From NCBI GenBank assembly GCA_050250855.1, contig JBFWNW010000001.1, positions 32,001-96,000 of the forward strand: a DNA stretch of 64,000 nucleotides, written 5' to 3'. The translations under genes and the position numbers were made by a program. This DNA comes from Candidatus Babeliales bacterium (GTDB lineage Bacteria > Babelota > Babeliae > Babelales > JACPOV01). Numbering within the stretch: the first letter of the stretch is position 1; the number at the start of each line of letters is the position of its first letter. Of the stretch, positions 31,401 to 64,000 are shown in pieces. The notes under the pieces are model-generated. The model had not been told where the DNA came from. It did no database searches and saw only the letters and a program-made list of their open reading frames with translations.

Positions 31401-32185
31401 TGCATACCATATCATATATCCAAAGACTTACATGGTTTTTAAGTGATACATGGGAACTGGTTAAACGTAATCTATTTCATATATTTCGCGATTTAGATCA
31501 AATATTTGGTTTAATAACACAACCAATAATATATACGTTATTATTTCTTTTTTTATTTGGTGGTGCTATTAATGTCGGCTCTATTGATTATGTTAATTAT
31601 TTAATACCCGGTATGCTTGTTACCAATGTTTTATTTGCTTCAATAGTTACAAGCGTAGGAATTTCAAATGACTTAAAAACAGGTATTATAGATCGATTCC
31701 GTTCGTTGCCCATTAGTCAATGTGCGGTAATAAATAGTTACATAATTGCAAGTGTTCTTCGTGCAGTGATTGTTATTTTAATTGTGTTTATCCTTGGTCT
31801 TATTTTGGGCTTTCGCCCTACTACAGGACCTCAAGATTGGTTTTTTGCTTTTGGTATATTATTACTTATGGCATTTGCGACATCATGCCTTTTAACATTG
31901 ATTGGTTTTATAAGTAAAAGTGTTGAAGCTGCTCAACAATTTGCTGCATTAATAGTTCTACCTTTTGCAATGATTAGTCCTGCACTTGTTCCAATCAATA
32001 CGTTGCCATACTTTTTACGTATATTTGCAGAGCATCAACCTTATACACACACAATTGAGGCAGTACGTTCATTGCTTTTTGGAAACCCACTTTCTAATCA
32101 TCTTCTAATGTCATTAACTTGGTTTTTAACTATTATCATTATAACTTTTACTCTGACTTCCTATTTGTTTTCTAAAAGGTCGTAA
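31397..32185 (+). CDS. ABC-2 permease (DrrB-like)
   Basis: Six TM segments, GIIDRFRSLP. Confidence 0.9.
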   Translation: MMHTISYIQRLTWFLSDTWELVKRNLFHIFRDLDQIFGLITQPIIYTLLFLFLFGGAINVGSIDYVNYLIPGMLVTNVLFASIVTSVGISNDLKTGIIDRFRSLPISQCAVINSYIIASVLRAVIVILIVFILGLILGFRPTTGPQDWFFAFGILLLMAFATSCLLTLIGFISKSVEAAQQFAALIVLPFAMISPALVPINTLPYFLRIFAEHQPYTHTIEAVRSLLFGNPLSNHLLMSLTWFLTIIIITFTLTSYLFSKRS

Positions 32186-47948: not shown

Positions 47949-48176
47949 CCGTTCGTGGTGAGGGTTTTTCGAAGAAAAACGTCTCGAACCACTTGAACTC
48001 AAAATTAAAAAATTCATATTTTTTTTAAATAGATTTGTCGTTATGGTTCGACCCTTCGTCGAGCTCAGGACAGGAACGCAAACTTTAGTTTGCTCCTCAC
48101 CACGAACGGGATATAAAAAAGTGATTTCGCTCATCCTGAGTGATGTGCGTAGCGCATTGTATCGAAGGATAAGAGC
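47949..48176. repeat. Cluster of three REP-like palindromes, one with a nested insert
   Basis: 47949-47991(+), 48044-48109(-) with insert 48052-48074, 48128-48176(+). Confidence 0.88.
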
Positions 48177-59622: not shown

Positions 59623-61125
59623 ATGGTTTTTAAAGAAAGCTCTCCCGAAGTTCTTATTGAACATGAGCAAGAACTCTCAGATGAATCAAAAGTCCGTATT
59701 GCAAAAGTAGAAGAGATGCGCAAACAGGGTATTGAGCCCTGGCCGCCAGCACGTGCTGTTTCTCATACTTGTAAGCAGGTGCATGATGAATTTGAGCCTG
59801 ATGCGCACAAAGAGTATACGCTTGCCGGTCGTTTAATGTCTTTACGCTGGCATGGAAAAACAGCGTTTGCTGATCTGCAAGATAGAAGCGGCAGGGTGCA
59901 ACTTTATTTTAAAAAAGATGCATTAGGGGAAGAGCAATTTTCTATACTTAAAAACTTTGTTGATATTGGTGATATTGTCTGGGTGCAAGGAACTTCCTTT
60001 AAAACTAAAATGGGAGAAGTTACCCTTGAAGTAAAAACATTTGAACTCTTGAGCAAATGTATTCATCCGTTGCCAGAAAAATTTCATGGCCTGACTGATA
60101 CAGAAAAACGCTATCGCCAGCGCTATCTTGATTTGATAGTGAATCCAGACAATAAAGAAAAATTTATTCGCCGTACGCTGCTCGTGCGCGCTATGCGTAC
60201 CTTTTTGGATAATCATGGCTTTTTGGAAGTGGAAACACCGATGCTGCACCCCATTGCTGGTGGCGCTACAGCACGTCCTTTTGTAACGCATCACAATGCG
60301 TATGATTCTGATTTTTATTTACGTATTGCGCCTGAGCTTTATTTAAAACGTTTAATCGTTGGTGGTCTTGAACGCGTGTATGAAATTAATCGTAACTTCC
60401 GCAATGAAGGCGTTTCAACAAGGCATAATCCAGAATTTACGATGTGCGAATTTTATATGGCACATCATGATTATCATTTTATCATGGGCTTTGTTGAAGA
60501 AATGCTACGTGCCATGATGCTTGAAAGTTGTGGAACGTTGCAAGTACCATTTGGCGATCATACGCTTGATTTTGGCGTTAGTTTTAAACGTTTGAGTATT
60601 CGTGATTCAGTGCTTGAAATTGGTGGCTTGCAGGAAAAAGATATTCAAGAAAGTGCTCTTGATGCAACGTTAAAAAAACATAACGTAAAAGTAGCCAATA
60701 AAAAAGCATCAGCAGGCGAAAAGATATTTGCTTTATTTGAAGAGCTTGTAGAACACAAACTTATTCAACCAACCTTTATTACCGATTTTCCTATTGAAGT
60801 TTCTCCGCTTGCAAAGCGTGATTCTAAAAATCCTGCCATTGCTGCACGTTTTGAACTATTTATAGCCGGCATGGAGTTGAGCAACGGTTTTAACGAGTTG
60901 AATGATCCTTTTGACCAAGCAGAACGTTTTGAGCAACAGCTGGAAGCGCATAAAGCGGGCAATGATGAAGCGCATCAGTACGATGCAGATTATATTCATG
61001 CACTTGAATATGCTTTGTCGCCTACTGTTGGCGTGGGAATTGGTATTGATCGTTTAGTTATGCTTGCAACCAATACAACGTCCATAAAAGATGTAATTTT
61101 ATTTCCGACATTAAAAAAGAAGTAA
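59623..61125 (+). CDS. lysS: Lysine--tRNA ligase (class II)
   Basis: RYRQRYLDL, YLRIAPELYLKRL, FRNEG, HNPEF, GIGIDRL. Confidence 0.98.
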   Translation: MVFKESSPEVLIEHEQELSDESKVRIAKVEEMRKQGIEPWPPARAVSHTCKQVHDEFEPDAHKEYTLAGRLMSLRWHGKTAFADLQDRSGRVQLYFKKDALGEEQFSILKNFVDIGDIVWVQGTSFKTKMGEVTLEVKTFELLSKCIHPLPEKFHGLTDTEKRYRQRYLDLIVNPDNKEKFIRRTLLVRAMRTFLDNHGFLEVETPMLHPIAGGATARPFVTHHNAYDSDFYLRIAPELYLKRLIVGGLERVYEINRNFRNEGVSTRHNPEFTMCEFYMAHHDYHFIMGFVEEMLRAMMLESCGTLQVPFGDHTLDFGVSFKRLSIRDSVLEIGGLQEKDIQESALDATLKKHNVKVANKKASAGEKIFALFEELVEHKLIQPTFITDFPIEVSPLAKRDSKNPAIAARFELFIAGMELSNGFNELNDPFDQAERFEQQLEAHKAGNDEAHQYDADYIHALEYALSPTVGVGIGIDRLVMLATNTTSIKDVILFPTLKKK

Positions 61126-61129
61126 TATA

Positions 61130-61154
61130 TACTCCCGTTTACCCAACGGGAGTA
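61130..61154 (+). terminator. Hairpin after lysS
   Basis: tactcccgtt/aacgggagta 10-bp stem; no T tract. Confidence 0.5.
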
Positions 61155-61163
61155 ACAAGTGAA

Positions 61164-61671
61164 TGCATTGATAGAATCCCGTTCGTGGTGAGGAGCCCAG
61201 CGAAGTTCTTTAACAGAGCCTGGGCGTCTCGAACCATAGGGATACAAAAGAAAATAATATAATAATGCTTCCTTTTTATTTGTTTTACATTGTGCTGATA
61301 ATTCATACTACAGTGGTCATACCGATGATATTGAAAAACGTATGGCAGAGCATATTGCTGGTGGTATAAGTAAATACACATCTACTCGTTTACCTGTTAA
61401 GTTAGTTTATCTAGAAACATTTTCAACAAGAGTAGAAGCTTTAGAGGCAGAAATTAAAATAAAAAAATGGTCAAAAAAGAAAAAAGAAGCTTTAATTGCT
61501 AGAAATTGGACAATGCTCATTCAATTAGCAAAAAGAAGAAAGAGTTTTTAGCATTGTGGTTCGAGACGCAAACTAAATAAGTTTGCTCCTCACCACGAAC
61601 GGAATTTAAATAATTTTTAATAACTCGATTGATTCATTTTTAGTAAAAATCCTTAGATCGAATTTACGTTA
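61164..61671 (+). mobile_element. REP-flanked GIY-YIG unit
   Basis: REP(+) 61179-61236, nuclease gene, REP(-) 61557-61602, and a conserved right end also found at 5211-5301. Confidence 0.8.
61265..61551 (+). pseudogene. Small stand-alone GIY-YIG nuclease (YhbQ/UPF0213-like); start codon out of frame
   Basis: The frame of 61342-61551 extends upstream as FLFVLHCADNSYYSGHTDDIEKRMAEH...KYT..R.PV.LVY.E...ALEAE..IK; nearest ATG (61265) is 1 nt out of frame. Confidence 0.85.
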
Positions 61672-61677
61672 AAATAG

Positions 61678-61772
61678 TGCATTGATAGAATCCCGTTCGT
61701 GGTGAGGAGCCCAGCGAAGTTCTTTAACGGAGCTGGGCGTCTCGAACCATAGGGATACAAAAGATCGAATTT
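61678..61772 (+). repeat. Direct copy of the unit's left arm fused to its right end (gene deleted)
   Basis: 61678-61764 equals 61164-61251 apart from 1 substitution and 1 indel, then tcgaattta as at 61658-61666. Confidence 0.9.
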
Positions 61773-61822
61773 ATTTTTTTACTGGTTAAAATTTAGTATA
61801 CTTTAACCTTAATGAAGCGCTC

Positions 61823-61983
61823 AACGGCTTTTAAGCCGTTCTTTCCCAGACTTCGTTAAAACTTCGTCGGGCAGGCTGCGCGGAATTCTTCGAAGCCAAC
61901 CCTACTACGCTAAAGCTTCGAAGGGTTCTACTTGCCATTCATCCCCAGTTTTAAAAAACTTGGGGTTTTCTGGCGAAGTAGAA
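61823..61983. repeat. Multi-hairpin non-coding element, possibly an IS200/IS605-type miniature
   Basis: Four consecutive hairpins; the last is ttctactt-gcca-ttcat-cccca...tgggg-ttttc-tggc-g-aagtagaa. Confidence 0.55.
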
Positions 61984-62055
61984 TAGGTTTGTATTTATAA
62001 AAAAATAATGTATGCAGAACAAGTGAATGCATTAAAAATTATTAGGGAGTTCTCT

Positions 62056-63024
62056 ATGAAAAAATTATTTACACTGTTTAGTCTCACAGTCATTATCCAT
62101 GGAACAAGCTTTAGTTCGGAAAAAGATAACAACAACTTTTTTGGTGTTCCTGAAGGGGCTCCTTTTAAACTAATACATGAAGCATGTTCAAAGATGCAGA
62201 TGAGAGACCTCAGCCCTGAAGAAAAAGAGGCTATGAAGAAAGCCTATACCATGGAGCTGAAAAAACGAGGCTTTGACGAATATGGCCTTACACCTTTAAC
62301 GCATGCTATCATAAAAGAAAAAGAAAAAAAGAAAATAAAAGTAGAAGAGTTGCTAGCAAATGGTGCCTCAGTCAATGCAGGAAATTTTCTAGATTTTACT
62401 CCTTTGCATTACGCTGCAGCTGAAGGTGATATAGAAATGATAAATATTTTAAGTAAGTATAAGCCAAATGTTAATGCTCAAGAAGCTAATGGCCAAACGC
62501 CATTGCATAAAGCTAAGGATGGCAAAACAGTAAAATGCCTTTTGAGTTTGGGGGCGGCTATTATTAAAGATAATGATTTGAAGACACCATTGCATCGAAA
62601 AATTCTGTGTAAAAATATGTATAACACTTTTGACGCAATAGAAGAGCTCATTGCAAGTGGCAAGGAAAATCTTGATGCTATATCAGAATTGGATAGTCCT
62701 TTGGGGATTGCTATAGGTGTAAACGACCTTGAAGTTATGAAGATGCTTATTAAGGCTGGAGCAAACGTTAATAAGAGAGGTAAAGATTTGACTCCTTTGC
62801 GTAAAGCTGTATCGCTGAAAAGAATAGCTATGGTACAATATTTACTTTCAAATGGAGCGAATGTAAATGATGGAATAGTTAAAGGAACAACTCCCCTGCA
62901 TTTGGCTGTAAAGAGCAAGAATAAAGAGCTTTGCCAATTATTATGTAATGCTGGTGCTGATACAACAATTAAAGATGAAGAGAGTCGAACTCCTTTTGAC
63001 CTTGCTCTTGAACATTGGCAATAA
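62056..63024 (+). CDS. Secreted ankyrin-repeat protein
   Basis: GLTPL, FTPLHYAA, GQTPLH, TTPLHLAV; GGGAG RBS. Confidence 0.92.
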   Translation: MKKLFTLFSLTVIIHGTSFSSEKDNNNFFGVPEGAPFKLIHEACSKMQMRDLSPEEKEAMKKAYTMELKKRGFDEYGLTPLTHAIIKEKEKKKIKVEELLANGASVNAGNFLDFTPLHYAAAEGDIEMINILSKYKPNVNAQEANGQTPLHKAKDGKTVKCLLSLGAAIIKDNDLKTPLHRKILCKNMYNTFDAIEELIASGKENLDAISELDSPLGIAIGVNDLEVMKMLIKAGANVNKRGKDLTPLRKAVSLKRIAMVQYLLSNGANVNDGIVKGTTPLHLAVKSKNKELCQLLCNAGADTTIKDEESRTPFDLALEHWQ

Positions 63025-63086: not shown

Positions 63087-64000
63087 GTGAAAAAATTATT
63101 TACGCTGTTGAGTTTTGCACTCATTATCCATGGAACAAGCTTTAGTTCGGAAAAAGATAATAACAACTTTTTTGGTGTTCCTGAAGGGGCTCCTTTTAAA
63201 CTAATAGATGAAGCACGTTCAAAGATGGAGATGAGAGACCTCAGCCCTGAAGAAAAAGAGGCAATGAAGGAAGCCTATGATATGGAGCTGCAGAAGCGAG
63301 GCTTTGATAAAGAGGGTTTGACACCGTTGATACGTGCTATAAAAAAAGAAAAAAATAAAATAAAAGTAGTAGCAAATTTTCTAGCAAATGGTGCCTCAGT
63401 CAATGCAGGAGATTTTCTAGATTTTACTCCTTTGCATTATGCTGCAGCTGAAGGTGATATAGAAATGATAAATATTTTAAGTAACTATAAGCCAAATGTT
63501 AATGCTCAAGGAGCTAATGGTAAAACGCCATTGCATTGGGCTAAGGATGGCAAAACGGTACAATGTCTTTTGAGTTTGGGGGCGCTTATTCTTAAAGATA
63601 ATGGTTTTATGACACCATTGTTTAGCAAAATTAGTTTGAATGAGACTGATGCGGCAAGAGAGCTTATTTTAAGTGGAAAAGAAGATGTTAATGCTATAGC
63701 AGGCCGTCATAGCCTTTTAACGCTAGCTGTACGTTTGGGAAATGAAGTAATTGTAAGAAGGCTTATTGACGCAGGAGCCAGCGTTAATAAGGCTAATAAC
63801 CATAAAGAAACTCCTTTATTTTGTGCTGTAGATGCATTTAGATATGAAAGCGGCTCTTGTAATCTTGTAAAACTCTTACTTTTTAATGGAGCAGATGTAA
63901 ATGGTGGTATTGTTAAAGGAACAACTCCCTTGCATCTTGCTGCACAGATCAAGAACGAAAATCTTTTCCAACTACTATGTAAAGCTGGCGCTGATACAAA
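63087..64000 (+). CDS. Ankyrin-repeat protein, recent tandem paralog (runs off the window)
   Basis: GAGGAG RBS + GTG; high nucleotide identity to the 5' half of 62056-63024. Confidence 0.88.
   Translation, partial: MKKLFTLLSFALIIHGTSFSSEKDNNNFFGVPEGAPFKLIDEARSKMEMRDLSPEEKEAMKEAYDMELQKRGFDKEGLTPLIRAIKKEKNKIKVVANFLANGASVNAGDFLDFTPLHYAAAEGDIEMINILSNYKPNVNAQGANGKTPLHWAKDGKTVQCLLSLGALILKDNGFMTPLFSKISLNETDAARELILSGKEDVNAIAGRHSLLTLAVRLGNEVIVRRLIDAGASVNKANNHKETPLFCAVDAFRYESGSCNLVKLLLFNGADVNGGIVKGTTPLHLAAQIKNENLFQLLCKAGADT

Follow-up and report, generated by a model that had tools for sequence, protein, structure and literature searches.

What is a small stand-alone GIY-YIG nuclease reading frame doing between two inverted copies of a repetitive extragenic palindromic (REP) hairpin, in a genome where the same hairpin is dispersed over the chromosome? 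The question is raised by a locus in the window, by which we mean the whole 64,000-nucleotide stretch analysed here (positions 32,001 to 96,000 of contig JBFWNW010000001.1, assembly GCA_050250855.1), from the genome of a Candidatus Babeliales bacterium (Dependentiae/TM6; 1.218 Mb, 36% G+C, 95% complete). An original prediction, made from the letters of the window, proposed a REPtron-like system in which the GIY-YIG enzyme would drive the spread or nesting of the REPs. Part of that reading stands: a small GIY-YIG gene is specifically bracketed by the REP family of its genome without a RAYT transposase, and the arrangement generalises to other families and phyla. The part that does not stand concerns the window copy itself, which is frameshifted. 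We think it reasonably probable that the locus is an inactivated copy of a compact cassette, made of a hairpin, a gene for a single-domain GIY-YIG protein of about 90 residues and an inverted hairpin, and that the mechanism of the cassette most likely resembles that of the Ssn nucleases.

A nuclease gene between inverted copies of the commonest hairpin repeat

The reading frame in the window matches the Pfam profile PF01541 with an E-value of 2.4e-16 and a score of 60.2 bits, where the cut-off is 22.6. Its flanking hairpins stand where they had been predicted, with the ACCA of the upstream + strand hairpin ending 28 nt before the ATG at 61265 and the inverted copy starting 5 nt 3' of the TAG (Table 1). 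The hairpin arms at the locus are 95% complementary over 22 nt and 80% complementary over 25 nt, and both flanking hairpins fold better than shuffles (z -2.3 to -4.0). These flanks are the commonest hairpin repeat of the genome, with about 130 (128-134) occurrences of the core GTTC[GA][TC][GC][CG]TGA genome-wide. The family is indeed scattered over the window, as had been claimed: the pattern GTTCRYSSTGA has 17 matches there against 0.13 expected, and none of 100 shuffles reaches 17.

An intact paralogue exists on another contig (C2). It encodes 91 aa, is 58% identical to the window copy, scores 67.5 bits against PF01541 and lies between yraN-like and cdsA-like genes, also flanked by hairpins; the genome holds a uvrC-type GIY-YIG match as well. 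Among 1133 crude open reading frames (ORFs) of at least 80 codons, a core is found within 120 nt upstream of 31 and downstream of 65, and cores on both sides within 120 nt, upstream on the + strand and downstream on the - strand, are found at one ORF of the 1133, which is the intact paralogue. The window copy has the same layout and is not among the 1133 because it is too short for the list. The adjacency of yraN and a small GIY-YIG gene on C2 has a loose parallel in E. coli K-12 (locus L238), where yraN and yhbQ lie 4 kb apart, possibly by coincidence.

A hairpin family with a conserved loop and compensating stems

The consensus of 60 simple units is CCGTTCG-NNN-TGAGCYYGTCGAAG-N'N'N'-TW-CGAACGG, a bulged stem with an 11-nt loop. 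The stem covaries among these units: pair 10-28 is T-A in 35 and C-G in 25, complementary in 60/60, and pair 11-27 is G-C in 31, C-G in 26, A-T in 2 and G-T in 1, paired in 60/60. In the superfamily as a whole, variable compensating stems surround a conserved loop, either TGAGCYYGTCGAA or TGAGG-stem-GTMTCGAA, and some units have a second hairpin nested inside the first, between TGAGG and GTCTCGAA. In the present genome the GTCTCGAA type accompanies the window copy of the gene and the GTCGAA type the C2 paralogue. Hairpins are frequently arranged as inverted pairs, and inverted pairs without a gene are common. Loop positions 17 and 20 of the simple units change together (C..G in 55, T..A in 5); with only 2 nt between them they are too near to pair, which points to shared descent or to a recognition variant.

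No Rfam family was found for the hairpins; at gathering thresholds the window yields one tRNA only, and in E-value mode the region 61000-62050 yields chance-level matches. A literature search for the motif string CTGAGCTTGTCGAAGG returned nothing.

Association of the nuclease with flanking repeats across genomes and phyla

The protein family was placed by a tree of 60 rows and 95 columns built by quick search, from which rows with an internal stop or fewer than 75 residues were dropped and N. mucosa locus L201 was left out. In this tree a Babeliales-type clade of 34 rows (SH-aLRT branch support 95) lies apart from an Ssn-type clade of 9 rows (SH-aLRT 100) and adjoins YhbQ of E. coli, a UPF0213 protein of Neisseria and a protein of Peptoniphilus, the grouping with these three being weak (SH-aLRT 83). 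The best relatives of solved structure are UPF0213 proteins (PDB 1ZG2, BH0048, E 5.1e-15; 1YWL, EF2693, E 8.3e-13). Six residues are invariant in a 16-sequence alignment of the clade (Y4, Y14, G16, R24, H28 and E62, numbered as in the first sequence), among them the two Tyr, the Arg and the Glu of the catalytic core, and homologues that do not read into a hairpin are 87-102 aa long.

With the paralogue as query, 23/41 related genomes give matches, at 0-6 per genome including fragments and stop-containing copies. For 61 non-redundant homologue loci (4 duplicates were taken out and 1 lacked a local hit), the upstream flank was aligned locally to the reverse complement of the downstream one, and a score of >13 was the threshold for a flank repeat. 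The enrichment of repeats beside homologues, which the original prediction had proposed as a check, is pronounced: the threshold is exceeded in 34/61 loci against 1/81 control ORFs of the same loci, and the Babeliales-type clade alone has a flank repeat in 30/39 loci.

The association extends well beyond the Babeliales. A profile of the clade finds at least 575 relatives in species-representative genomes, and the best 80 of these form our cross-phylum set (70 with full flanks for the repeat tests, 72 for the motif scan described below). Flank repeats are present in 51/70 of these loci against 1/210 shuffles, and the loop of the cross-phylum hairpins is nearly invariant while the stems differ yet stay complementary. 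A 17-nt core, CCTGAGCTTGTCGAAGG, is found at no fewer than 125 loci, in at least 20 phyla among the matches listed. One of these matches is a locus in an Eremiobacterota metagenome-assembled genome (MAG), where a clade gene, 44% identical, lies between inverted copies of that hairpin.

At the level of whole genomes the link between nuclease and repeat is real but imperfect. With two core patterns summed, at least 15 cores are present in 9/15 relatives that have a nuclease of the same P0003 type as the window copy against 5/26 without one; reversed patterns, counted as controls, give 0-5 per genome.

A third small GIY-YIG type, of about 80 aa and ending in ...YLKSGSGRAF..K.F, was also observed (L024-L026, L226, L230 and L231 in G003, G006, G009, G015 and G019; L227 in G025). 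In most loci it lies directly 3' of tRNA genes, no upstream tRNA being seen in L025 and L227. Inverted flank repeats are lacking (scores 8.5-11), and L026 is flanked on both sides by a direct repeat of about 110 nt.

Cassette duplication and filled and empty sites

One related genome (G004) contains two copies of the cassette that are 90.7% identical over 376 bp and cease to be homologous precisely where the outer hairpins end; one of the two is nested centrally in a larger palindrome. At two syntenic sites, genomes differ in whether a cassette is present. In a genome of the same genus (G001), one separates a gyrI-like gene from tilS; the present genome has a 35-nt spacer there, without a hairpin. 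In the present genome the paralogue cassette separates yraN from cdsA, which directly adjoin each other in G004 and G002; in the 600-nt yraN-cdsA spacer of G001 no gene remnant was detected (best E 1.6). Since neither empty site retains a hairpin doublet, the hairpins arrived or left with the gene.

Several further observations concern the cassette. The nuclease gene lies directly 5' of tilS in two different families (L029 in G039, L005 in G001), and in L029 the frame stays open across the downstream hairpin and continues into tilS, as a fused ORF of 462 codons. In G039, two cassettes (L046 and L047) are 86% identical over 436 bp and share both hairpin variants, but the variant on the left of one is on the right of the other, an outcome that inversion of the gene by recombination between the inverted hairpins would produce.

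No Y1 transposase linked to the hairpins

The absence of a RAYT gene, noted for the window, holds for the whole genome (95% complete), in which PF01797 has no match at E<=1. Y1_Tnp genes occur in 15/41 relatives and in none of the hairpin-rich genomes G001, G004, G029 and G039. The original prediction had also named, as an outcome that would refute it, a REP abundance that tracks a RAYT or other transposase. TGAG...TCGAA hairpins flank 0/14 Y1 loci of relatives, one of which has a lone core; 13 of the loci are IS200-type, with their own terminal hairpins where the ORF was resolved, and 1 is RAYT-like with an unrelated repeat.

The window copy is probably a recent pseudogene

The gene of about 95 codons that had been described in the window has the GIY-YIG domain that was claimed for it, but not the intact ORF, because the ATG at 61265 belongs to another frame, which ends after 34 codons. 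A stop codon (61255-61257) lies directly 5' of the GIY-YIG frame and there is no ATG, GTG or TTG until 61342, so the first GIY-YIG motif of the window copy cannot be translated. The window protein has no match in NCBIfam. Logan contigs from two runs of one study, which are possibly the source of the MAG itself, cover 61222-61586 with zero indels relative to the window. A contig of a relative (run X4; 151 nt, depth 2.7, 9 differences) has 4 additional bases after the ATG, which bring the ATG into frame. From these indel-free contigs and the 4 extra bases, the window copy is probably a recently frameshifted pseudogene with a small deletion just past the start codon, and it is likely dead. The stakes are accordingly lower for the window itself, which holds a decayed copy.

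Organisation of the locus

Table 1. Coordinates, in the window, of the nuclease frame, its repeats and other members of the hairpin family
Feature	Position	Strand	Details
GIY-YIG reading frame	61258..61551	+	97 open codons; stop TAG 61549-61551; no ATG/GTG/TTG before 61342; P0003-type clade
Out-of-frame ATG 61265	61265..61369	+	34-codon frame; stop 61367-61369
Upstream REP hairpin	61176..61243	+	outer stem ATCCC/GGGAT; TGGT/ACCA stem; TGAGG...GTCTCGAA internal loop; nested inner stem CCCAG/CTGGG
Downstream inverted REP hairpin	61557..61602	-	TGGT/ACCA type; inner stem GCAAACT/AGTTTGC
AT-rich 'leader' accompanying the downstream hairpin subtype	61603..61652	-	61557-61652 is 94/96 identical to gene-less copy C1:454443
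88-bp direct repeat, copy 1	61164..61251	+	includes upstream hairpin; two full-length copies only in the genome
88-bp direct repeat, copy 2	61678..61764	+	third REP hairpin (+) at about 61690-61756
16-bp direct repeat AACAAGTGAATGCATT, left copy	61154..61169	+	borders the repeat/nuclease block
16-bp direct repeat, right copy	62018..62033	+	in the 5' leader of the ankyrin-repeat gene
Gene-less inverted pair, same TGG-type hairpin	47951..48107	.	cores 47951 (+) and 48097-48107 (-)
Further core starts in the window	3, 5286, 5366, 5405, 5865, 27435, 27473, 52073, 52138, 52170, 54128, 54168		pattern GTTCRYSSTGA

The pseudogene lies in an intergenic block of 880 bp, from the lysS stop (61123-61125) to an ankyrin-repeat ORF (from 62008), in which repeats surround one small gene. 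The two 16-bp direct repeats enclose 848 bp of this block, in which the nuclease pseudogene, all three hairpins and additional repeat modules lie. The exact 16-mer AACAAGTGAATGCATT occurs at these two genomic sites only (61154 and 62018), and the pair resembles a long target duplication or the scar of a template switch; a near-copy with 2 mismatches is located at C1:97080, just outside the window.

The two copies of the 88-bp direct repeat are 98-100% identical and make the locus a repeat with a period of 514 bp, present 1.17 times, in the order hairpin, gene, inverted hairpin, spacer and hairpin. In the contigs of runs X1 and X2, position 61721 is joined back to 61552, and the first copy has the hairpin-loop variant of the second (61215 A>G, with 1 nt omitted at 61219). 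The joint and the loop variant together suggest exchange between the 88-bp repeat copies, or assembly ambiguity.

Between 61783 and 62000 there are GC-rich modules of other repeat families, such as those resembling CCAGACTTCGTTAAAACTTCGTCGGGCAGG and those of the form GAATTCTTCGAAGC...GCTTCGAAGGGTTC; these modules also adjoin hairpin doublets elsewhere in the genome. Downstream, 62008-63024 and 63087-63998 are tandem paralogous ankyrin-repeat genes whose signal-peptide-like N-termini are near-identical (MKKLFTL...).

Interpretation and alternative explanations

Our model for an intact cassette is drawn by analogy with Ssn. The nuclease would recognise the conserved loop of its cognate hairpin in single-stranded DNA and cut nearby, and repair or recombination by the host at the cuts could duplicate, relocate or remove hairpins as well as entire cassettes. 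By this analogy we infer binding, cleavage, single-strand specificity and a causal role of the nuclease in the spread of the repeats, or in their nesting as had been proposed. A further-reaching proposal, which we offer tentatively, is that bare GIY-YIG nucleases have a second branch across phyla, YhbQ/UPF0213-like and paired with its own near-universal TGAGCYYGTCGAA hairpin, the stems of which vary freely. Gained and lost as whole hairpin-gene-hairpin units, nuclease and hairpin would form a mobile element that is driven by the nuclease and has no transposase; this element would seed a REP family among the most widespread in bacteria and would have been missed altogether by the Ssn/SRM search.

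Several observations weigh against the cassette model. GIY-YIG enzymes hydrolyse DNA without forming a covalent intermediate, and for that reason a GIY-YIG enzyme alone is incapable of strand transfer. The window copy is broken, yet the TGG-type hairpins cognate to it include near-identical copies, for example the one at 94/96. We considered whether gene-less doublets might be internal-deletion derivatives of the cassette and rejected this, because past the hairpin and its 50-nt leader the alignment of that copy is AT-rich noise. Five relatives are hairpin-rich without a P0003-type gene: G006 (57 cores), G019 (99) and G025 (35), where other small GIY-YIG types are the only ones found, and G005 (18) and G030 (18), where uvrC-length matches are. 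The genome-level contrast also overstates the link, since the relatives are not independent. Finally, the flank-repeat score had to be discarded as proof of inverted orientation, because hairpins are palindromic and direct-orientation matches are scored too in 32/70 cross-phylum loci. The inverted orientation rests instead on the asymmetric loop motif, which is arranged upstream (+) and downstream (-) in 29/70 of these loci and in the reverse manner in 14/70.

Among the alternatives, the one that survives best makes the gene a parasite of the repeats and not their driver, and we regard it as rather unlikely. A homing-like GIY-YIG gene would cut hairpin doublets and be copied into them by repair, with the hairpins as homology, while the hairpins spread by some other route. 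Gene-less inverted pairs are common, and cassettes do sit exactly between two full hairpins, one of them within a larger palindrome. The 5/26 genomes that are hairpin-rich without the gene, and the variable number of copies per genome (0-6), decayed ones included, are in keeping with a parasite, and it is general knowledge that GIY-YIG chemistry suits cut-and-repair better than transposition. What speaks against the parasite is that both empty syntenic sites, the 35-nt spacer and the adjacent genes, lack any doublet into which the gene could have been copied, and that no other candidate enzyme for mobilising the hairpins was found, Y1 being absent from this genome.

It is improbable, to a further degree, that the nuclease is a domesticated host function that restricts or shapes recombination of hairpin-bearing single-stranded DNA or clears hairpins at replication forks, its flanks being self-regulatory or the relic of a mobile past. 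The position 5' of tilS in two families would fit such a role, as would the annotation of the nearest named relative, E. coli YhbQ, as a 'DNA damage response nuclease' and the precedent of SsnA, discussed below. However, patchy presence, multiple divergent copies, pseudogenes and a lack of synteny even within the genus are better explained by a selfish element.

That a RAYT or other transposase, elsewhere or since lost, mobilises the repeats with the GIY-YIG gene as bystander is very improbable: Y1_Tnp genes are found in relatives, including 3/5 of the hairpin-rich genomes without the nuclease (G005, G025 and G030), but in neither this genome nor the four hairpin-rich ones named above, and none of the 14 Y1 loci is flanked by the hairpins. 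Equally hard to credit is the absence of any functional link, with hairpins accumulating in tolerant intergenic DNA or serving as terminators near a dispensable small gene; the hairpins do lie mainly 3' of genes and several repeat families share this intergenic region, but the inverted flanking unique to the paralogue among the crude ORFs, the enrichment at homologue loci over controls and the same layout and loop motif in the Eremiobacterota genome and many others already contradict it.

If the pairing of nuclease and hairpin in the cassette model is functional, the rule of a bare GIY-YIG nuclease with its own dispersed hairpin would extend past the family described in 2025. Many proteins annotated merely as 'GIY-YIG nuclease family protein' would acquire a testable function, and the hairpin core found across phyla would have a candidate partner enzyme. 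More enzyme/site pairs would become available for single-stranded-DNA tools, and the repeat load of reduced Dependentiae genomes would be accounted for without the usual REP transposase.

Comparison with known systems

The cassette is similar to REPtrons in that inverted copies of the REP abundant in the genome stand on either side of a nuclease gene, in that the REPs form doublets (REPIN/BIME-like) and in that the enzyme presumably acts on single-stranded hairpins. It differs from them (RAYT, HUH/Y1, GTAG-tagged REPs) in having a hydrolytic GIY-YIG enzyme in place of a Y1 enzyme with a covalent intermediate, and in lacking PF01797 and the GTAG tag. Literature searches found nothing that joins GIY-YIG with 'repetitive extragenic palindromic' or YhbQ with GIY-YIG, and no evidently relevant paper pairing GIY-YIG with REPIN, miniature inverted-repeat, RAYT or Dependentiae.

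Free-standing homing endonucleases of the I-TevI/Seg kind are also small, selfish-looking GIY-YIG genes that are patchy, multi-copy and often decayed. Homing GIY-YIG enzymes have a separate DNA-binding domain and double-stranded targets in genes, whereas the cassette protein is a bare catalytic domain. UPF0213/YhbQ proteins are weakly supported neighbours in the tree and have the same size and the same motifs; the Babeliales-type clade is marked by a signature of its own (HTDNIEKR... KIKxWSRxKKEALI) and by hairpin flanks.

On the side of the repeats, the closest comparison is with the CGTC-tagged REPs, which are described as being without a transposase and which have, in the available portion of their description, a terminal CGTC/TGTC tag, an 8-9-bp stem with complementary A/T almost always in the first two positions, a 4-5-nt loop and a CCA tail (Di Nocera, De Gregorio and Rocco 2013, PMC3733652). 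They resemble the present hairpins as a superfamily without a dedicated transposase, in intracellular bacteria and often in dimers. They differ in that the present stems have 7+4 bp with a 2-nt bulge, the conserved loop is 11 nt long and contains GTC, and modules are nested.

The most instructive comparison is with Ssn. The original prediction knew of no established mechanism for such an association, and one has since been found in print for the sister family (Chenal et al. 2025, PMC11893778; our statements on Ssn follow the available portion of that article). Ssn proteins (cd10448, GIY-YIG_unchar_3) are site-specific single-stranded-DNA nucleases that cut beside flanking NTS/SRM hairpins; such hairpins flank 42% of Ssn homologue genes, in a layout likened to an insertion sequence (IS), with mobility inferred at most (PMC11893778). 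SsnA modulates transformation in Neisseria, and its domestication has been hypothesised (PMC11893778). In Supplementary Data 4, one Dependentiae genome, that of Babela massiliensis, is entered, with 0 SRM and no ssnA (PMC11893778).

Homologues of Ssn are defined in that article by tblastn at E<1e-10 against N. meningitidis SsnA (PMC11893778). P0003 compared with 8 Ssn-type loci of the genus Neisseria, taken as a proxy for that SsnA and including one with exact NTS flanks (L249), gives E>=0.06. The Ssn-type signature NGTLYIGVT...NPxWxDL is anchored by Sphingopyxis and Neisseria-genus loci, and Ssn-type genes proper, with flank repeats, are also present in Babeliales (L020-L022). In the present genome the SRM motif HGTCWY...RNCYNB has 0 matches (surrogates 0-6), and exact NTS copies are found neither in the genome nor in the cassette flanks. 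Among 29 loci scanned the motif has 0 matches near 21 P0003-type genes and one near an Ssn-type gene, and it is found in 0/72 cross-phylum loci. The positive controls, a Sphingopyxis locus and Neisseria-genus loci (one with exact NTS copies), do match. An NTS pair 415 nt apart (L077) encloses no GIY-YIG ORF, and N. lactamica and N. mucosa have nothing of this kind beyond uvrC and a YhbQ-like gene.

The cassette and Ssn are alike in several respects: each consists of a single-domain GIY-YIG protein of about 90-100 residues whose gene lies between inverted hairpins, and these hairpins recur tens to hundreds of times in the genome. Both systems are over-represented in symbionts, and both have an IS-like layout. 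They part in the hairpin, where the conserved letters are in the loop or internal loop of the window type and in the 5' tag of the Ssn type. In all likelihood the cassette would work like Ssn/SRM while probably falling outside the Ssn family as defined: the principle is the one already described for Ssn with NTS/SRM (PMC11893778), and the nuclease clade and the hairpin are different here.

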